Assembly: GCA_018667335.1 (NCBI GenBank)
Contig: JABIVD010000029.1
Span: 91,381 to 155,380 of the forward strand
Length of the DNA: 64,000 bases
Origin: Rhodospirillaceae bacterium
Lineage (GTDB): Bacteria; Pseudomonadota; Alphaproteobacteria; UBA6615
Direction of reading: 5' to 3'
The position numbers were made by a program, and so were the translations under genes. The notes beneath the pieces were generated by a model. The model searched no databases. It saw only the letters and a program-made list of their open reading frames with translations, and was not told the origin of the DNA. Below, one piece after another: positions 19,987 to 35,523 of this stretch. The first letter of the stretch is position 1, and the number at the start of each line of letters is the position of its first letter.

Positions 19987-20937
19987 TTATTTATTGGTTT
20001 TTTCGGGGATTCCGATCCCGTCGTTCCCCGGGGACGCGCCGGCCTCAGGACGGCCGTTACGATTCAACCGCCGAAGAACGTCATCGAGTTGATCAAACGA
20101 CTTGAATTCGATCGCCAGGACGCCCTGGCCTGAACTTTCGTCACCGCGTGCGTTGATCGACACCTTCAGGCCGAGAACATCCGACAGGTCGCGCTCAAGT
20201 GCGAGCGTATCCGTACTTTTCTCGGGCTTATTCTTCTTCGATGCCTTGCGTCCACCGGATTTGCTAACCCGCCCCTCGATATCCCGGACAGTCATTCCGT
20301 CGCGGGCGATCTGTCGGGCAAGGGCCACAGCGTCTTCACGCCCCACGAGTGCCCGCGCATGACCGGCGGTCAACTCGCCGCGGTCAATCATCTGCCGAAC
20401 CTCGTCGGGCAGGGTCAGCAAACGCAACAAATTGGCGATATGGCTGCGGCTTTTGCCCATGGCCTTGGCCAGCGCATCCTGCGTGTGGGAGAAATGATCC
20501 ATCAGCCGTTGATAGCCCTCGGCCTCCTCGATCGGCGAGAGGTCCTCACGCTGGATATTCTCGATCAGGGCGACTTCGAGCGCCGCCTGATCGTCGAGCT
20601 CGCGGATTATGACCGGGACTTCGTGCAATTTCGCACGCTGTGCGGCACGCCAGCGCCGTTCCCCGGCGATAATTTCATACAGATCCGCCTGCACGGGATC
20701 GCGCCGGACGAGAATGGGCTGGAGGATACCCTTCTCGCGCACGGACTCGACGAGCGATGCGAGTTCGGCCTCGTCGAAATTCGTCCGCGGCTGGAACCGG
20801 CCGGGGTGGAGTTGCTCGATCGGCAGCTCACGCGCCGGCCTGGCCTTGTCCAGTTCCTGATAGTCTTCGCTGTCGTCCCCCAGGAGGGCCGACAGACCGC
20901 GGCCGAGGCGGGGCCTTGAGGTGGGCTCGCTCATTCG
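19987..20937 (-). CDS. parB: chromosome-partitioning protein ParB
   Basis: ParB box LVESVREKGILQPILVR. HTH region. N-terminus MSEPTSRPRLGRGLSALL. The start overlaps the parA stop. Confidence 0.9.
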   Translation of the reverse strand, partial: RMSEPTSRPRLGRGLSALLGDDSEDYQELDKARPARELPIEQLHPGRFQPRTNFDEAELASLVESVREKGILQPILVRRDPVQADLYEIIAGERRWRAAQRAKLHEVPVIIRELDDQAALEVALIENIQREDLSPIEEAEGYQRLMDHFSHTQDALAKAMGKSRSHIANLLRLLTLPDEVRQMIDRGELTAGHARALVGREDAVALARQIARDGMTVRDIEGRVSKSGGRKASKKNKPEKSTDTLALERDLSDVLGLKVSINARGDESSGQGVLAIEFKSFDQLDDVLRRLNRNGRPEAGASPGNDGIGIPEKTNK

Positions 20938-21818
20938 GCTGCCTCCCCGATCGGCCCGACGCCCTCGCGGCGCAGGAGTTCGGCCGCAAGCCGGGCATAG
21001 GCCTGGGCGCCGGAACATGCCAGGTCGTAGACCAGGGCCGGCTTGCCGTAGGACGGCGCCTCGGACAGACGCACGTTGCGCGGGATGACGGTCTTGTAGA
21101 CCCGGTCGTGGAAATGCGCCCGGACATCGGCCTCGACCGAGCGGCAGAGGTTGTTCCGGCTGTCATACATGGTCAGTACGATGCCCTGAATGTTCAGGTT
21201 CTCGTTGTAGGCCCGGCGAATGCGTTCGATCGATTTCATCAGCCGCGTCATGCCCTCGAGTGCGAAATACTCGCACTGCAGGGGTACGAGGACTGAATCA
21301 GCTGCGACGAGGGCATTGATGGTGAGCAGGCCGAGAGCGGGCGGACAGTCGATCAACACATAGTCATACCGGCCGAGGACCGGGGCGAGTGTTTCGCGCA
21401 GGCGCGCCTCGCGATGCGGGATATCGATCAACTCTATTTCAGCGCCGGCAAGATCCGCGGATGCCGGCGCGACTTCGAGACCCGGAATCTCCGTCCGGCA
21501 GATCACGTCGTCAAACCGGCCGCCACCGATCAGCACATCATACACATCTGTTTCATAATCTGAAACACCGAGGCCAGTGGACGCATTTCCCTGGGGGTCG
21601 AGATCGACCACGAGGACGCTTTGCCCGCATGCGGCCAATCCGGTCGCGAGGTTGATCGCGGTCGTGGTCTTGCCGACACCGCCCTTCTGGTTCGCAACGG
21701 CAATCGTGCGCGTTCCCCGCGCGCGGGCCGGGCCTTCGGGCTTGAACGGCCCGGTGGCTGGTCGATCGTTGGCAGGGCGGTCGATGTCGGGACGGTCGGT
21801 GATGGTGTGATCAGACAC
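20931..21818 (-). CDS. parA: chromosome-partitioning ATPase ParA
   Basis: Deviant Walker A IAVANQKGGVGKTTT. GTG start at 21818 overlapping the rsmG stop. Confidence 0.9.
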   Translation of the reverse strand: MSDHTITDRPDIDRPANDRPATGPFKPEGPARARGTRTIAVANQKGGVGKTTTAINLATGLAACGQSVLVVDLDPQGNASTGLGVSDYETDVYDVLIGGGRFDDVICRTEIPGLEVAPASADLAGAEIELIDIPHREARLRETLAPVLGRYDYVLIDCPPALGLLTINALVAADSVLVPLQCEYFALEGMTRLMKSIERIRRAYNENLNIQGIVLTMYDSRNNLCRSVEADVRAHFHDRVYKTVIPRNVRLSEAPSYGKPALVYDLACSGAQAYARLAAELLRREGVGPIGEAAE

Positions 21819-22488
21819 GTGTCAGATTCCCTATCTTGAGCACCGTGCCATCCGGATCGGACAGGCTTTGATGCTGCTCCACTTGCATATTCCAGAATTC
21901 AGCCGCGTCGGTCAATTCGCCATCGACCCGCGCGCCCTTGAGAAAAAGGCAAAATCCATTGGATTTCATCAGACCGGACGCATGGCCGAGGAGGTCCGGG
22001 AGCGGCGCAAGGGCCCGCGCCACGACGACATCGAAGGCTCCGCCCGCCATTTCGGAAGTGTCCAGGGCTTCGATCCGGCTCTCGGCTATCTCCGCGCGCG
22101 CATCCGTCAGGCGGCGGACTTCGCGGAGGAACGCACATTTCCGGGCATCCGATTCCGCCAGCACCACCGTGGCACCGGTTATGATGGACAGGACGAGACC
22201 GGGAAATCCCGCACCGCTGCCCATGTCCAGGATCCGCATGTCCGGCGACACCCAGCGGGCGAGCTGGACGGAATCCAGGAAATGCCGGCGCCAGAGATCA
22301 TCGAGGGATTTGTTGGAGACCAGATTGATGCGCGGCTGCCAGGTCCGCAGCGTCTCGGCGTAGACCTCGAGCCGGCCGAATGTTTGCTGGTCGAATGTTT
22401 GCCGGCCGAATGTTTCACGTGAAACATTCGCGAGGTCAGCCGCCAGATCGGCAAACCCGTCGCGCGACAAAGGGACCTCAATATTCAT
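21811..22488 (-). CDS. rsmG: 16S rRNA m7G527 methyltransferase RsmG (GidB)
   Basis: SAM motif ILDMGSGAGFPGLVLSI. Order gidA-gidB-parA-parB. Confidence 0.9.
   Translation of the reverse strand: MNIEVPLSRDGFADLAADLANVSRETFGRQTFDQQTFGRLEVYAETLRTWQPRINLVSNKSLDDLWRRHFLDSVQLARWVSPDMRILDMGSGAGFPGLVLSIITGATVVLAESDARKCAFLREVRRLTDARAEIAESRIEALDTSEMAGGAFDVVVARALAPLPDLLGHASGLMKSNGFCLFLKGARVDGELTDAAEFWNMQVEQHQSLSDPDGTVLKIGNLTRV
22371..22429. repeat. direct repeats of the parS half-site (gccggccgaatgttt x2, tcgaatgttt) immediately upstream of parS 1
   Basis: gccggccgaatgttt at 22371-22385 and 22401-22415; tcgaatgttt at 22391-22400. Encodes the repeated QTFG peptide in the RsmG N-terminus. Confidence 0.5.
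22411..22426. promoter_or_regulatory. parS: parS centromere site 1 (TGTTTCACGTGAAACA), inside the rsmG 5' coding region
   Basis: Perfect match to the canonical 16-bp parS palindrome. The palindrome extends to 22 bp (22408-22429). Confidence 0.85.
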
Positions 22489-22540
22489 GCGCCCCCTATA
22501 CCAAGGATAGGGTTTCGCACCAACCCCTATATATAGTGTA

Positions 22541-24433
22541 TCAGGCGGCCTTGCGGGCGCGCTTCACGTGCCGGAGCAGAACCACGAGCGCCGCCGGCGT
22601 CACGCCGGGGATGCGGCCGGCCTGCCCCAGGGTCTCGGGACGCAGCCGCCCGAGTTTCTCGGAGATCTCGTTCGAGAGCCCGGGCACAGAGCCGTATTCG
22701 AAGTCGGCCGGCAGTATGAGTGCCTCGTCACGCTGGTACGCCGCCACATCCGCGGCCTGGCGCTCGAGATAGCGTGCATACTTCGCTTCGATCTCCATGG
22801 TCGCGCGGACCGGCGCCGCGATCGCCGCGAGCTCGGGCCACACGCCGACGGCCGTGTCGAAGCCCGTATCGGGCATCGACAGCAGGTCGAACGCGGTTCT
22901 GCGGACCCCGTCCTGGTTGATCCGAACCCCGTGCCGGGCAAGGGCGTTCGGTGTTGCGTTGACAGATTCGAGAAGGTCGCGAGCCGCGGCCAGAGCCGTT
23001 GCCTTCGCCTCGAACGCGGCCGACCGATCCGGCCCGACGCAGCCGAGATCGACCCCGTGGCGGGTCAGGCGCTGGTCCGCATTGTCGGCCCGAAGCAGGA
23101 GTCGATACTCGGCGCGCGATGTAAACATCCGGTAGGGCTCGTCCGCGCCACGGGTCACCAGGTCGTCGATCATGACCCCGATGTAGGATTGCGCGCGATT
23201 CGGCTGGAGCCGTTTCGTGCCGCCGGAGGCTTTCTGGGCTGCGTTAATTCCGGCCACCAGACCCTGCCCCGCGGCCTCCTCATATCCGGTAGTGCCATTG
23301 ATCTGACCCGCCAGGAACAGCCCGGGAATCCGCCTCGTTTCCAAAGTAGTGCCTAATTCTCGCGGATCCACGAAATCATATTCGATGGCGTAACCGGGAC
23401 GTAGTACCGCCGCGTTCTCGAGCCCCGGAATGAGTTTCAACATCGCCAGCTGGACGTCTTCCGGCAGCGATGTGGAGATCCCGTTCGGGTAGACCGTGTC
23501 GTCGTCCAGGCCTTCGGGCTCGAGGAAAATTTGGTGGCGCTGCTTGTCGGCGAAACGAACGACCTTGTCCTCGATCGAGGGGCAGTATCTCGGGCCGCCA
23601 CTCTCGATCTGTCCTGAATAGATCGGCGCCCGGTCGAGATTGGCCCGGATCAGGTCATGGGCCTCGGGCGTGGTGTGGGTGATGTGGCAATCGATCTGCG
23701 GCGTGGTGATCGCCTCGGTCATGTAGGAGAACGGCACCGGCGGCGTATCGCCGGGCTGCCGGTCGAGACCACTCCAGTCGATTGTCCGTCCGTCGAGGCG
23801 CGGCGGAGTCCCGGTTTTCAGGCGCCCGAGCGCGAAACCGGCGGCCTCCAGGGTCTTGGACAGGCCCATCGACGGCGCCTCGCCGAACCGGCCGGCGGGA
23901 ACCTGGGTCTCGCCGATGTGGATGACGCCGCGCAGGAAGGTGCCGGTGGTCAGAACCACACACCCGGCCGCGATCATACGCCCGTCTGACAGGACCACGC
24001 CGGACACCCGACCCTCCCCGTCAAGGGTGAGATCGTCGACGCCGGCGCCGAGAATATCGAGATTGTCCTGCTCGGCCAGAAGATCCTGTATTGCCTGACG
24101 GTAGAGCTTCCGGTCCGCCTGGGCGCGCGGGCCCCAAACAGCCGGGCCCTTCGTGCGATTGAGCATCCGGAACTGGATCCCGCCCCGATCGATGGCGCGG
24201 CCCATGATCCCGTCGAGCGCATCGATCTCGCGCACCAGATGGCCCTTGCCGAGCCCGCCGATCGCGGGATTGCAGGACATCTCGCCGATGGTCTCGAGCT
24301 TGTGGGTCACCAGGAGCGTGGCTGCGCCGACCCGGGCGGAAGCCGCCGCGGCCTCGCAGCCGGCATGGCCGCCGCCGATGACGATCACATCATAGGTCTC
24401 GGGACCATCTTTTGCTGAATCCGGGGTGTTCAT
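22541..24433 (-). CDS. mnmG: tRNA uridine-5-carboxymethylaminomethyl modification enzyme MnmG (GidA)
   Basis: FAD motif [16 protein letters not shown]. About 630 aa. Start ATG at 24433 ([18 protein letters not shown]); the ORF track extends to 24511. Confidence 0.92.
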
Positions 24434-24511
24434 CGCGCGCGCTGTGTAGGCCCTGTTGTCGTACCTGTCAAAGTACCATGCGTATGACTGATCGAAGTCC
24501 CGGAAATCCAA

Positions 24512-24527
24512 TGTTTCACGTGAAACA
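24512..24527. promoter_or_regulatory. parS: parS centromere site 2 (TGTTTCACGTGAAACA) between mnmE and mnmG
   Basis: Second perfect 16-bp parS palindrome (ccaATGTTTCACGTGAAACATTc). Confidence 0.85.
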
Positions 24528-24545
24528 TTCGTCTAGGCAAGACGC

Positions 24546-25889
24546 TTACTTCCCAATACAGAAGTCACGAAAGACGGTGTCGAGTATGTCGTCGATATCG
24601 ACCCGGCCGGTGATCCTGCCAAGCGCCCGGAGCGCGACACGCACGTCCTCGGCGGCGAGTTCCGGGTATGCCGCGTCGGGTACATGCGCCAGCGCCGTGC
24701 TCGCCTCGCCCAACGCATCGCGATGACGCCGGCGGGTCGGCAACGGCGCTTCAGACGCCCCCAGGCGGTCGTGCACCTCGCCGGTCAGTCTGTCGAGCAA
24801 ACCATCGAGCCCGTCGCCGGTCTCCGCAGATACGAGTATCGGCACGATCCCTTCCGGAAGACCCGGCGCGGCGTATTTCCCCCTCAGCAGATCGGCTTTG
24901 TTCACCACCACCAGGCAATCACCGGCGATCAGCGCACGGACCTTCTCCGGCAAGGTACCGTCGGTCGCGTCGAGCACCACGAGCCTCAGGGCCGCATCCT
25001 CAGCCCGTTGCTCGGCACGCCGCACACCCTCGGCCTCAATCGCATCAGAAGCCTCGCGTATCCCCGCCGTATCGGAGAGCGTCACGGCGAAGCCACCGAG
25101 ATTGAGCTGGACCTCGATGACGTCGCGGGTGGTCCCCGCGGTTTCCGACACGATCGCCGCCTCACGTTGCGCCAAGTGATTGATAATACTGGACTTTCCG
25201 ACGTTCGGCGCGCCCAGGATCACGATCGGAAAACCGCTACGTATGTGCTCGCCGCGATCCGCACCTACTATATGTTGTGTGATCTCAGCATTCAGCACTG
25301 CGATGCGTTCCTCGGTCGCGGCCCTCATCCCATCCGGCAACTCCTCGTCGGAGAAGTCGATTTCCGCCTCGGCATGGCCCATCAAGTCGATCAGGCGGGC
25401 CCGCCACCCCTCATAGAGATCGGCCAGCACCCCATCATACTGGCGCAGCGCCAGTCGCCTCTGGGCGTCCGTCTGGGCCGCCACGAGGTCTGCCAGCCCC
25501 TCGGCGGCCGTCAGGTCGAGCTTGCCGTTCTCGAAGGCGCGGCGGGTGAAATCGCCCGGTTCGGCATGCCGCGCCAGGCCGGTCCCGGAAATCGCATCGA
25601 ACACCGCGGCGAGGACCGCGCGACCGCCATGCACATGGAGTTCGGCCACGTCCTCGCCGGTGAAACTGTTCGGGGCCGGAAATCTCAGGACCAACGCCTG
25701 ATCGAGGACTGCGCCGCCCGGCCCGGAAGTCAATTTGTGCAGCGCAACATAACGCGCCTCGGGAAGCACCGGGACGCCAAGTGCGGTCAGGACCGCATCG
25801 GCATTCGGGCCCGAAACACGCACGACCGAGACGCCGGCGAGGCCGGCGCCGCTCGACAGCGCGTAGATGGTGTCTGCAGGCGATACCAC
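24546..25889 (-). CDS. mnmE: tRNA modification GTPase MnmE (TrmE)
   Basis: G1 motif GAPNVGKSS. TTRD. C-terminal CIGK. N-terminus IYALSSGAG. Confidence 0.92.
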   Translation of the reverse strand: MVSPADTIYALSSGAGLAGVSVVRVSGPNADAVLTALGVPVLPEARYVALHKLTSGPGGAVLDQALVLRFPAPNSFTGEDVAELHVHGGRAVLAAVFDAISGTGLARHAEPGDFTRRAFENGKLDLTAAEGLADLVAAQTDAQRRLALRQYDGVLADLYEGWRARLIDLMGHAEAEIDFSDEELPDGMRAATEERIAVLNAEITQHIVGADRGEHIRSGFPIVILGAPNVGKSSIINHLAQREAAIVSETAGTTRDVIEVQLNLGGFAVTLSDTAGIREASDAIEAEGVRRAEQRAEDAALRLVVLDATDGTLPEKVRALIAGDCLVVVNKADLLRGKYAAPGLPEGIVPILVSAETGDGLDGLLDRLTGEVHDRLGASEAPLPTRRRHRDALGEASTALAHVPDAAYPELAAEDVRVALRALGRITGRVDIDDILDTVFRDFCIGK

Positions 25890-25896
25890 GACCGGA

Positions 25897-26160
25897 TTAC
25901 TTCTTGGTGCTGGTCGCGCCCGGATTGGTCATCGACGACCAGAAGGATTTCTGGAACTGCTCCCAGCCCTCACTGCCAGCAGGGCCGCCACCGGGCGCCC
26001 ATGCCGTGAACAGGCTCTGCGGGTCCATCGACGACATCGCCTCCATGGCCTGCTTCTGCCACGCCTCGACCACGGCCTGCTGCGCCGCCGAGATGTCGGG
26101 CAGACCCATGAAGCTGCGGGCCTCCTCGGGGGTGCAATCGATATCTATCGTGACTTTCAT
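25897..26160 (-). CDS. small acidic hypothetical protein (87 aa) immediately upstream of mnmE
   Basis: ORF 7 nt upstream of mnmE on the same strand. No family recognised. Confidence 0.35.
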   Translation of the reverse strand: MKVTIDIDCTPEEARSFMGLPDISAAQQAVVEAWQKQAMEAMSSMDPQSLFTAWAPGGGPAGSEGWEQFQKSFWSSMTNPGATSTKK

Positions 26161-26284: not shown

Positions 26285-28302
<2,018 letters not shown>

Positions 28303-28306
<4 letters not shown>

Positions 28307-30084: not shown

Positions 30085-31341
30085 TTACTGGTTCATGGTG
30101 TCGTAGAAGTCGTCGTTGTTCTTGGTCGACTTCATCTTGCCGAGCAGGAACTCCATACCGTCCACGACCCCCATGGGGCTGAGGATGCGGCGCAGGACCC
30201 ACATCTTCGACAAGGCGTCCTTGTCGACCAGCAGCTCTTCTTTGCGCGTGCCCGACTTGGTGATGTCGATCGACGGCCAGACCCGCTTGTCCGACAGCTT
30301 CCGGTCGAGGACGATTTCCGAGTTACCGGTGCCCTTGAACTCTTCGAAGATGACCTCGTCCATACGCGAGCCGGTCTCGATCAGCGCGGTCGAGATGATC
30401 GTCAGCGAGCCGCCTTCTTCAATGTTACGGGCCGCGCCGAAGAAACGCTTCGGACGCTGCAGGGCGTTGGCGTCCACGCCGCCGGTCAGCACCTTGCCCG
30501 AGGACGGGACGACGGTGTTGTAGGCGCGGGCGAGGCGGGTGATCGAATCCAGCAGGATGACCACGTCGTGCTTATGCTCGACCAGGCGCTTGGCCTTGGA
30601 GATCACCATCTCGGCGACCTGCACATGGCGTGTGGCCGGCTCATCGAACGTCGAGGAGATCACCTCACCGCGCACCGTGCGCTGCATGTCGGTCACTTCC
30701 TCGGGCCGCTCGTCGATCAGCAAGACGATCAGATAGACCTCGGGATGATTGGCCATGATCGCCTTGGCGATGTTCTGCATCATCACGGTCTTGCCCGTGC
30801 GCGGCGGTGCGACCAGCAGCGCGCGCTGGCCCATGCCGAGCGGTGCCACCATGTCGATGACGCGGGTCGAGGGATCCTTCATCTCGGGATCATCGATCTC
30901 CAGCTTGATCTTCCGGTCGGGATAGAGCGGGGTCAGGTTGTCGAAGTTGACGCGGTGACGGGTGTGATCCACATCGTCGAAATTGACCTGGGCGACCTTG
31001 ACCAGCGCGAAGTAACGCTCGCCATCCTTGGGAGAGCGGATTTCGCCCTCGACCGTGTCGCCCGTGCGCAACGCGAAGCGGCGCACCTGGCTGGGTGAGA
31101 CATAGATATCGTCGGGACCCGGCAGAAAGTTCGATTCCGGCGAGCGCAGGAAGCCGAAGCCGTCCTGTAGCACTTCCAGAACACCGATGCCCGAGATCGG
31201 CACCTCGTCCTCTGCCAGTTCCTTGAGGATCGCGAACATCATGTCCTGGGTGCGAAGGTTGCTCGCCCCCTCGATCTCGAGTTCCTCGGCAAAGCTGAGG
31301 AGATCAGCCGCGGATTTGTCTTTCAGGTCTTGGAGTTTCAT
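30085..31341 (-). CDS. rho: transcription termination factor Rho
   Basis: N-terminus [41 protein letters not shown]. Walker A and RNA-binding domain. ORF track start 31386; ATG 31341 has a GGAAG SD; alternative ATG at 31350. Confidence 0.93.
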
Positions 31342-31603
31342 TGCTTCCATGGGGAGGCCAATTCTGTTTGGAAACCTACGCGCCACAACGGCTGGGAACC
31401 GCGTTTTCGGGGGCGTTGGTGATTGTCAGCGGAAGTTCGTGGTCGCCGACGGGAAACGCCGGAAGAAAACGACTTATGCGGAAGGGAGTGCGTGCGATGA
31501 GGACTGTCTTGTGCGCGCGCCGTTATTACGCACTTAGTGAGCGTGCCGCGTCAAGTCAATCCTCGCGACGGAAATGCTGCGGCAAAAACCCGGGGCCAAA
31601 AAC

Positions 31604-33134: not shown

Positions 33135-34184
33135 TCATCCGGCGGGCGTCCATTCACGAACGATCTCGGCGAGCCGCTCGACATGTTCGAACGGCGTATC
33201 CTTGTTGATGCCGTGGGCCAGGTTGAACACGAACGGGCCCCCACCGAGCGCGTCCAGGATTTCCCGCGCGGCGCGCTCCATCTCATCACCGCCGACCATC
33301 AGATAGGCCGGATCGAGATTGCCCTGCACGGGACAGATCGGCTGAATCCTGCTGGCGGCTTCGCCGGCGGTCATCGATGCATCGAGGCCGACGGCATCGA
33401 TCCCGGTCGCGCGGATATATCCCTCGAGGCGCTCACCGATCCCGCGGGCAAAACCGATGATCGGGATATCGGGCGCGCGCGCCTTCACCCCCGCCACGAT
33501 GCGCGCGGTCGGCGAGATCACCCACGCATCGAAGTCGTTTGCCGGCACGGCACCCGCCCAGGTGTCGAACAGCTGCAGCGCCTGGGCGCCAGCCTCGACC
33601 TGGGCCACGAGATAGGCGGTCGTGGATTCCACCAGGATATCCATCAGCGATGCGAAATCCGCGCGGTCACGAACGGCCCAGCTTTTGACCGCGTTGAAGT
33701 CGCGGCTCGAGCCCCCCTCGACCATGTAGGTCGCGACCGTCCACGGCGCGCCGGCAAACCCGATCAGCGCCACATCATCGGGAAGTTCTTCGCGGACCCG
33801 CGCGACCGTCTCGAACACCGGTGCCAGATGACCGAGGGTTTTCCCGGGATCGAGCTTCGCCAGATCCGCGCCGTTCGTCACCGGGGTGAGGACCGGCCCG
33901 GTCCCCTCGACAAACCCGACCTCCTGGCCAATCGCATCGGGGATCACCAGAATATCCGAGAACAGGATCGCCGCGTCGGGCCGGAACCGATCGATCGGTT
34001 GCAGGGTTACCCTGGCGGCGCGTTCCGGGGTGTAGCAGAGATCCAGAAAACCGGAGGCCTGGGCCCGAATTTCCCGGTATTCCGGGAGATATCGGCCGGC
34101 CTGGCGCATGAACCAGAATGGTGGGCGGCCACCGGTTTTACTGGCCGGATTGCTGGACAGGGCATCGAGGAACAAGTTGGACAC
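33135..34184 (-). CDS. hemE: uroporphyrinogen decarboxylase
   Basis: PPFWFMRQAGRYLPEYREIR N-terminal signature. 349 aa. Confidence 0.92.
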   Translation of the reverse strand: MSNLFLDALSSNPASKTGGRPPFWFMRQAGRYLPEYREIRAQASGFLDLCYTPERAARVTLQPIDRFRPDAAILFSDILVIPDAIGQEVGFVEGTGPVLTPVTNGADLAKLDPGKTLGHLAPVFETVARVREELPDDVALIGFAGAPWTVATYMVEGGSSRDFNAVKSWAVRDRADFASLMDILVESTTAYLVAQVEAGAQALQLFDTWAGAVPANDFDAWVISPTARIVAGVKARAPDIPIIGFARGIGERLEGYIRATGIDAVGLDASMTAGEAASRIQPICPVQGNLDPAYLMVGGDEMERAAREILDALGGGPFVFNLAHGINKDTPFEHVERLAEIVREWTPAG

Positions 34185-34659
34185 GGTTGGAAAACTGACG
34201 TTTGGGTTGGCGGTCTGCGGTCGGAAAGACAGGTTTCTGACGGGGCTGAATGAGGCCTGACTATGCCGATCAGGTTGTCCCTGCGCATCCTAAATAATAG
34301 TAGTTGAACGTAGTGAAATTTGAACTGTAGTTGTAGATGTGCGGTGAATCCGAGGGATAAGTCTTCGTTCACGAATTCGTACAGAACGGCGACCAGCTGT
34401 GCACGAACGAACGGACGCTTTGTTCGTAAATCTCCTAGACCGTTGATCCGCAATATATTCGTGCCGGGCCGGCTTGTGGATCACCTTGGTCCAGCGACTG
34501 GATGGCTGGTTCCGCCAGCGGATGCATACCGGCTGTTGGAAACTTTGTCCTCCGTGGGATGACAGGGGGGTGTACGAACGGCATAAGGTTGATGAAATAT
34601 TTCGCGCAGGGAGAAGTCGCTACTTATCCCCGTTGTCATTGTATTCGCTCCCAGCCCAG
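34185..34659. other. oriC: candidate chromosomal replication origin (oriC; hemE | ori | DUF299 synteny as in Caulobacter Cori)
   Basis: 475-bp non-coding gap. DnaA-box-like TGTGGATCA (34475-34483, reverse complement of the Caulobacter G-box TGATCCACA) and TGATCCGCA (34444-34452). TTATCC cores at 34355-34360 (reverse complement) and 34624-34629. 50-bp AT-rich stretch at 34291-34340. Confidence 0.55.
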
Positions 34660-35523
34660 ATGGTGCCGCTGATGGCCGAAACCGAAGACGTCTTCCACCT
34701 TCACCTGGTCTCGGATTCCACCGGTGAGACGATCCGGTCGGTCTCGCGGGCCTGCCTGGCCCAGTTCTCGGAAACGCAGTCGGTCGAGCATTTCTGGCCG
34801 ATGGCGCGGACACCGAAGGCGATGGAGTTGGTGCTCGAGGAGATCCACGAGAACCCCGGCCCGGTGATCTTCACCCTGGTGAACGACAATTTGTGTGAGC
34901 AGCTTGTTCGGGGCTGCCGGTTGCGCAAGGTGCCGTGTATTTCCGTGCTCGATCCGGTCATTGCCGCGGTCGGCAACTATCTGGGCCAGCAGCCGACCCA
35001 CCGCATCGGCGGGCAGCATGAGCTCGACGAGGCCTATTTCGCGCGGATCGAGGCGATGGACTGGTCGCTCACCCATGATGACGGGCAGCGGACCGAGGAG
35101 CTGAACGGCTCGGATATCGTGCTGGTTGGGGTGTCGCGCACCTCGAAGACGCCGACCTGCCTGTATCTGGCGAACCGGGGGATCAAGGCCGCAAATGTGC
35201 CCTACGTGCCCGGTGTGCCGCTCCCCGATATTCTCGAACAACTGACCAATCCGCTGGTGATCGGGTTGACCAACGATCCAAAGCGCCTGGTTGAGCTGCG
35301 CCGGGCGCGGCTGACGTCGCTGCACGAGCACCAGGAGACCGATTATGTCGACCCCGAGGTCGTGCGCGCGGAAATCACCCAGGCGCGGCGCTATTTTGCC
35401 CGCAACAACTGGCCCGTCATCGACGTGACCCGGCGTTCGATCGAGGAAACGTCCGCCGCGATCATGAATGTCTACAATCGCCGGCTCGAAGAGGCCGAAA
35501 AGAGCGATGATGCCGCCGGCTGA
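34660..35523 (+). CDS. pyruvate,phosphate dikinase regulatory protein-like kinase/pyrophosphorylase (DUF299; RP001 homologue)
   Basis: MVPLMAETEDVFHLHLVSDSTGET. P-loop GVSRTSKTPTCLYLA. ORF track begins at 34474; ATG at 34660 (alternative 34672). Confidence 0.85.
   Translation: MVPLMAETEDVFHLHLVSDSTGETIRSVSRACLAQFSETQSVEHFWPMARTPKAMELVLEEIHENPGPVIFTLVNDNLCEQLVRGCRLRKVPCISVLDPVIAAVGNYLGQQPTHRIGGQHELDEAYFARIEAMDWSLTHDDGQRTEELNGSDIVLVGVSRTSKTPTCLYLANRGIKAANVPYVPGVPLPDILEQLTNPLVIGLTNDPKRLVELRRARLTSLHEHQETDYVDPEVVRAEITQARRYFARNNWPVIDVTRRSIEETSAAIMNVYNRRLEEAEKSDDAAG

Follow-up and report, generated by a model that had tools for sequence, protein, structure and literature searches.

Predicted parS sites on either side of mnmG in an uncultured marine alphaproteobacterium, one of them encoded within rsmG beside a short tandem repeat

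A centromere site inside the coding sequence of a par-linked gene cluster has a precedent in Bacillus subtilis, where parS is said to have been found inside spo0J by Lin and Grossman in 1998. For Caulobacter crescentus, the cluster of chromosomal parS sites was reportedly described by Toro in 2008. We analyzed a stretch of 64,000 nucleotides from Rhodospirillaceae bacterium (contig JABIVD010000029.1 of assembly GCA_018667335.1, positions 91,381 to 155,380; below referred to as the window), in which two predicted parS palindromes, parS1 and parS2, lie on either side of mnmG and close to genes for ParA and ParB. The first of them forms part of the rsmG coding sequence and adjoins a tandem repeat of 15 bp. 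The window thus shares with B. subtilis a centromere site within a coding sequence of a par-linked cluster, the same DNA serving at once as protein code and as centromere, but the host gene is rsmG instead of spo0J, and the encoded peptide VSRET is near-universal in the sampled RsmG proteins of alphaproteobacteria.

The ParABS system of C. crescentus is a close parallel, as its 16-bp parS consensus (Tran et al. 2018, PMC5815017) is that of the window sites. In both cases, parS sites are clustered within a few kilobases and adjoin parAB; those of Caulobacter are located several kilobases from the origin, those of the window several kilobases from a probable one, and the two ParB proteins are closely related and carry the specificity residues R173 and G201. 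A mechanism like that of C. crescentus, with nucleation followed by CTP-dependent sliding, would be expected in the window. While C. crescentus has seven parS of graded strength, the window holds two in 64 kb, both perfect and predicted to be bound. A single parS arm (half-parS) is a target of ParB in Pseudomonas aeruginosa (Kawalek et al. 2018, PMC5961200), an idea that runs parallel to a role of the repeat units next to parS1; these units keep the outer AAACA and its flank, but lack the CAC (positions 5-7) present in the half-parS of P. aeruginosa.

The two palindromes and their ParB

Taking the evidence together, we consider it highly probable that the two 16-mers are canonical chromosomal parS centromere sites, to which ParB would bind as expected from homology, and that the adjoining repeat is a product of duplication or slippage that does not bind ParB. 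The sites are located as follows:

22411..22426, no strand: parS1, a perfect 16-bp parS at the centre of a 24-bp palindrome, inside rsmG
24512..24527, no strand: parS2, a perfect 16-bp parS within a 20-bp palindrome, in the mnmE-mnmG spacer

A pattern search of the window retrieved exact matches of TGTTTCACGTGAAACA at these two positions and no third site with up to three mismatches, and both copies agree perfectly with the inverted-repeat parS consensus TGTTNCACGTGAAACA. The chance expectation for such matches in the window is 0.11 as judged from shuffled sequences, none of which (0/100) contained two. An earlier note, made from the letters of the window without database searches, had reported the same two positions as parS, and the search found exactly these. 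It had also placed mnmG between them, in agreement with the gene coordinates (24433..22541), and had described both copies as extended to perfect palindromes of 20-22 bp. Both are indeed extended and perfect, although the actual lengths are 24 bp for parS1 (22407-22430, CGAATGTTTCACGTGAAACATTCG) and 20 bp for parS2 (24510-24529); the identical stretch common to the two sites comprises 22 nt. The location of the first copy in the N-terminal coding region of rsmG was correctly recognized as well, since parS1 constitutes codons 21-26 of the 225-aa RsmG (AAT GTT TCA CGT GAA ACA, encoding N21-V-S-R-E-T26; RsmG assigned by TIGR00138). parS2 resides in the 112-bp spacer between mnmE and mnmG, 18 nt past the mnmE stop codon, and a conserved TTGACA of the -35 type follows approximately 40 nt downstream.

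The comparison with relatives was based on RsmG homologues from uncultured marine alphaproteobacteria (metagenome-assembled genomes, a TARA contig and JGI/ENA metagenomes) and, at the DNA level, on 13 loci (L001-L013) of approximately 10 kb each, most of them contigs encoding RsmG homologues; scans of genome and metagenome contigs with a single RsmG protein contributed two loci each, the records closest to the window being metagenome-assembled genomes and a TARA contig. The RsmG proteins of the related loci are 65-83% identical to that of the window. All 12 loci covering the respective region carry parS1 at the same rsmG codons (11 perfect, one with one mismatch), and all nine covering the spacer carry parS2 at the same position (six perfect, three with one mismatch), while no further parS-like site with up to two mismatches was found in these ~10-kb loci.

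The codons GTT, TCA, CGT, GAA and ACA of parS1 are invariant in the 12 loci. In this genome with a GC content of 64%, they are minority codons with frequencies of 0.11, 0.09, 0.14, 0.34 and 0.09, respectively, and a joint probability of 4e-5. Given that minority codons are invariant at this position, the alignment provides direct evidence, on the level of sequence, that selection acts on the DNA of parS1 beyond the coding need. The codons flanking the site are always NAT and TTN in the relatives, so that the palindrome conserved across them spans 18 bp, ATGTTTCACGTGAAACAT. parS1 is a dual-coding element, in which selection for the DNA site fixes the RsmG peptide (N/D/H)-V-S-R-E-T-(F/L). A conserved extended secondary structure around parS1 was also considered and rejected, the relatives sharing only the 18-bp palindrome.

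VSRET is present in most of the 120 RsmG homologues listed. Several distant homologues (P0071, P0085, P0092, P0102, P0119, P0082, P0084, P0096, P0108 and P0110) have FHVKH or an upstream VSRET in their N-termini, and these are the peptides that result from parS read in another frame or located at another position. Protein sequences thus suggest that many rsmG genes carry a parS near their 5' end, and also that some start codons of the distant homologues have been called too far upstream. A search of the available literature retrieved no paper on a parS embedded in rsmG or on VSRET, nor one on an rsmG repeat generated by the palindrome, an absence that is no proof of novelty.

The ParB encoded in the window matches the Caulobacter ParB crystallised with parS (6t1f) with an E value of 5e-67. 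According to Jalal et al., the conserved DNA contacts of ParB are Q162, G170, K171, S172, N178 and R204, and R173 and G201 distinguish proteins that bind parS from Noc (Q173, K179, K184, R201). In the alignment with 6t1f, the window ParB retains the equivalents of all six contacts as well as R173 and G201; positions 179 and 184 are occupied by L and T instead of K, and none of the four Noc-type residues is found at 173, 179, 184 and 201. Because the specificity residues are kept, a parS specificity other than the canonical one is unlikely for this protein. The proposal of the earlier note that the palindromes are parS therefore agrees with the perfect consensus match, the adjacent parA and parB, the residues of ParB and the conservation of both sites, and the pair as such is conserved, ordinary and of a kind already known.

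We envisage that dimers of the ParB encoded next to the sites nucleate on each palindrome. With CTP bound, they would close as clamps and spread by sliding across the interval of ~2 kb that holds mnmG, and across the DNA on either side, to form a partition complex that ParA would move. parS2 lies upstream of the likely promoter of mnmG-rsmG-parAB, and ParB loaded at this site could feed back on its own operon. An analogy is provided by P. aeruginosa, for which repression by parS3 and parS4 is mentioned in PMC5961200.

The genes of this region were identified by NCBIfam profile matches to translations of the window, which also bore out the rsmG and mnmG calls of the earlier note:

19987..20934, minus strand: parB, 315 aa (TIGR00180, 204 bits), with LGRGLSALL, the CTP-binding motif GERRWRA and a helix-turn-helix
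20931..21818, minus strand: parA, partition ATPase with the Walker A motif KGGVGKTT (NCBIfam)
21811..22488, minus strand: rsmG (gidB), 16S rRNA m7G527 methyltransferase, 225 aa (TIGR00138, 119 bits versus a cutoff of 99.5, E = 1.5e-34)
22541..24433, minus strand: mnmG (gidA), 630 aa from the ATG at 24433 (TIGR00136, 827 bits), start codon aligned with relatives
24546..25889, minus strand: mnmE (trmE), 447 aa (NF003661, 544 bits)

On the minus strand, the gene order is accordingly mnmE-mnmG-rsmG-parA-parB, and the parB start overlaps the parA stop in the tetranucleotide ATGA.

The tandem repeat beside parS1

Immediately next to parS1, rsmG contains a short array, the last 5 nt of which overlap the outer edge of the site:

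22371..22415, minus strand: 15-bp in-frame tandem repeat in three units (Tandem Repeats Finder: period 15, 3.0 copies, score 76)

The two outer units, GCCGGCCGAATGTTT on the plus strand, are identical to each other at 15/15 positions, and the middle unit GCTGGTCGAATGTTT matches them at 13/15 with two positions differing. In gene orientation, the array reads GAA ACA TTC GGC CGG, CAA ACA TTC GAC CAG, CAA ACA TTC GGC CGG and encodes ETFGR, QTFDQ and QTFGR, followed by LEVY, in the N-terminus of RsmG. The direct repeats beside the first copy and the repeated RsmG peptide, both of which the earlier note had pointed out, are thus real and belong to this single array. Its label of a half-site duplication, in contrast, is a loose one, as the direct repeats are 15-bp in-frame units that overlap the edge of parS1.

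Copy number varies among relatives. In the 120 homologues listed, the spacing from VSRET to a conserved W amounts to 13 aa in 79 proteins (one unit), to 18 aa in 15 (two units) and to 23 aa in two (three units), the latter being P0001 and P0019 of the window lineage. At the DNA level, one unit is found in L004, L008, L011 and L012, and two units in L001, L002, L003, L005, L010 and L013; among these, L003 shares 87% nucleotide identity with the window. A neighbour-joining tree calculated from the C-terminal ~170 aa of RsmG interleaves one- and two-unit forms in the marine clade and places the window lineage beside two-unit sequences. Since both its nearest neighbours in the tree and L003 have two units, and three units occur only in the window lineage, the third unit is, by this sequence comparison, a lineage-specific gain. 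A comparison of the units with those of L003 and L005 yielded no order of gains.

Palindromes and short tandem repeats are prone to assembly errors, so that an artefact of sequencing or assembly at the palindrome had to be considered. Its probability is negligible: a contig from an independent sample (L007, ENA) carries the same three-unit allele and is 99.7% identical over 3192 positions, with nine mismatches and no gaps. The three-unit form is also found in a second protein record, P0019, and two-unit forms occupy the same spot in related genomes.

We regard the repeat as best read as a tolerated in-frame product of duplication or slippage, the slippage mechanism itself being a deduction from the sequence context. 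Events of this kind beside the palindrome would add units of 5 aa to a loop of RsmG, and no ParB binding would be expected. Slippage and template switching classically occur where direct repeats adjoin a perfect palindrome, and the palindrome itself may have generated the repeat. The single strand of 22362-22440 is predicted to fold at -23.3 kcal/mol (z = -5.6), with the parS hairpin, GGCCGGC of unit 1 paired with that of unit 3, and unit 2 looped out. The whole block of parS1 plus repeat (22362-22440) is moreover flanked by a 7-bp complement, GACCTCG/CGAGGTC, that occurs in the window only and is absent from the relatives. With slippage-type repeats near palindromes, the array shares the exact 15-bp period, near-identical units in one to three copies, the adjacent palindrome and the strong fold. 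It differs from them in that its mechanism is deduced here and its copy number seems fixed in near-identical strains instead of being hypervariable.

The earlier note had offered a slippage relic as one of two possibilities, and this is the one favoured by the evidence on the repeats. The other, that the duplicated half-sites provide extra nucleation or spreading sites for ParB, did not hold up. Of the 8-nt parS arm, only the outer AAACA recurs in the units, together with 10 nt of flank (TTCG and six further bases), and they lack the CAC/GTG core that defines half-parS. The half-parS heptamer, as determined by experiment, is GTT(C/T)CAC, in which positions 1, 3, 5 and 6 (G1, T3, C5 and A6) are strict (PMC5961200; PMC7022226). 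Read on the plus strand, the units give GTTTGCC and GTTTGCT, in which the CA of positions 5-6 is replaced, and the half-parS motif is thus missing from the units. The same is true for GTGAAA, the conserved core of the seven Caulobacter parS (PMC5815017), and the repeat creates no additional 16-mer within three mismatches of parS. Furthermore, the second unit has drifted from AAACATT at synonymous positions in six related loci (GAAACA ATG, GAAACG ATG, GAAACC GTT, CAAACG ATG, GAAACC CTC and GATGCC GTT; variants read GAAACGATG, GAAACCGTT, CAAACGATG or GATGCCGTT), while parS a few bases away is invariant. Any centromere function of the repeat is, judging from these comparisons, most likely none.

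It is nevertheless conceivable that the units serve as auxiliary sites of low affinity, an array of outer arms that raises nucleation or retention of ParB at parS1. This would be in line with the conservation of the 9-nt AAACATTCG in all three units and its presence in the flanks of both parS, with the occurrence of CGAATGTTT five times in the window versus 0.46 expected, and with the half-parS binding documented for some ParB proteins (PMC5961200; PMC7022226). Each of the five copies of CGAATGTTT lies either at one of the two parS or within the array, and the arms of the two parS and the array account for the whole enrichment. The heptamer GTTTCAC is not significantly enriched in the window beyond the two parS (nine versus 5.3 expected, with 11/100 shuffles reaching nine), the ParB of Caulobacter binds only very weakly to non-parS DNA (PMC5815017), and in P. 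aeruginosa half-parS binding leads to no spreading (PMC5961200). Together with the missing CA and GTGAAA, the lack of added parS-like 16-mers and the synonymous drift, this renders auxiliary sites very unlikely.

Selection might also act on the protein: extra units of 5 aa would extend the linker that joins the N-terminal helix of RsmG to helix 1, and thereby change how RsmG works or how it contacts the 30S subunit. The reading frame is kept in every case and the length varies in exact steps of 5 aa, the second unit keeps the peptide x-T-(M/L/V/I)-x-R while its DNA drifts, and the two-unit form persists across a diverse clade. In an AlphaFold2 model of RsmG (48 homologues, mean pLDDT 91.8), however, the only weak block comprises residues 21-30 (pLDDT 57), which form a loop connecting helix 9-22 to helix 34-54, and the TIGR00138 core match begins at residue 40. 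As the repeat falls into this low-confidence loop and outside the core, the model indicates that insertions lengthen a tolerant surface loop or linker. The interleaving of one- and two-unit forms among close relatives suggests near-neutrality, and a third unit is found in a single lineage. We therefore deem selection at the protein level quite unlikely. That the 15-bp unit marks a hotspot of recurrent expansion and contraction made by the centromere itself, either because the palindrome of 18-24 bp is extruded as a hairpin or because ParB acts as a roadblock and thus favours template switching, is an unlikely but more far-reaching idea; if true, the centromere would not only prescribe a part of its host protein (VSRET) but also reshape it time and again (one to three ETFxx). 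In a weaker variant of this idea, the extra units would modestly tune the loading of ParB at parS1.

Several observations weigh against canonical parS sites flanked by a non-binding slippage product. Occupancy by ParB in Rhodospirillaceae bacterium rests on homology, and the promoter downstream of parS2 was assigned by eye, a scan of 22300-24700 with the Escherichia coli consensus having called none. The neighbour-joining tree was built without support values and is compatible with one gain and several losses of the unit or with repeated gains. The complete identity of the outer units and the retention of AAACATTCG by all three fit a recent origin, but also selection on the DNA. Given that some ParB proteins bind asymmetric or half sites weakly (PMC5961200), very weak binding to AAACATTCG is conceivable.

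Operon, origin region and implications

The promoter and origin features of the region are the following:

24443..24471, minus strand: promoter-like element for mnmG-rsmG-parAB, TTGACA (24471..24466), 17 nt, TACACA (24448..24443)
31386..30085: rho, near the probable origin
34184..33135, minus strand: hemE, next to an AT-rich spacer
34185-34680: probable oriC, the AT-rich spacer between hemE and a ppsR-like gene

The mnmG ATG lies 9 nt past the end of the promoter-like element. Nine loci share TTGACA-N17-TACA(T/C)A, followed by GCGCGCGC(A/G)ATG, with an invariant -35 hexamer in the alignment, and it was only this alignment of relatives that brought the element to light. It resembles a promoter of the operon, the leader of which would be very short, yielding a near-leaderless mnmG-rsmG-parAB transcript. 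At 24485-24511 (minus strand), TTGGATTTCC directly follows parS2, and CATAC stands approximately 25 nt further on; both are conserved in most relatives (L002, L003, L010, L011 and L012), with a variable GC-rich stretch between them. They could represent a remnant of the mnmE terminator or the binding site of another protein.

The surroundings of rho, hemH and hemE are the usual neighbourhood of alphaproteobacterial origins. In the window, hemH is located near rho and hemE, and the ppsR-like gene follows past the AT-rich spacer. This spacer contains TGATCCACA at 34475-34483 and an AT-rich tract at ~34290-34340, and the cumulative GC skew reaches its minimum at ~30-34 kb. The hemE-flanked spacer is the probable oriC, with the parS pair approximately 10-12 kb away.

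Beyond mnmE, a small open reading frame (ORF; 25897-26160, minus strand) is syntenic with a DUF6489 gene in all relatives, and a divergent ORF of 673 aa (26285-28306, plus strand) has its counterpart there in a thioredoxin-domain (DsbH-like) protein. Across the clade, gene order is conserved as leuS-lptE-(343-aa ORF)/parB-parA-rsmG-mnmG-mnmE-DUF6489/trx. No tRNA genes were found in the 64-kb window.

The tandem repeat is a minor lineage-specific curiosity. The layout with parS between mnmE and mnmG and again within rsmG, followed by parAB, is conserved across the clade, and its recognition is a gain for annotation, as it locates the centromere of this uncultured alphaproteobacterium from the sea approximately 10-12 kb from the probable origin. 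On this reading, the near-universal VSRET of alphaproteobacterial RsmG is the footprint that a centromere site has left in a protein sequence, a tidy case of dual coding.

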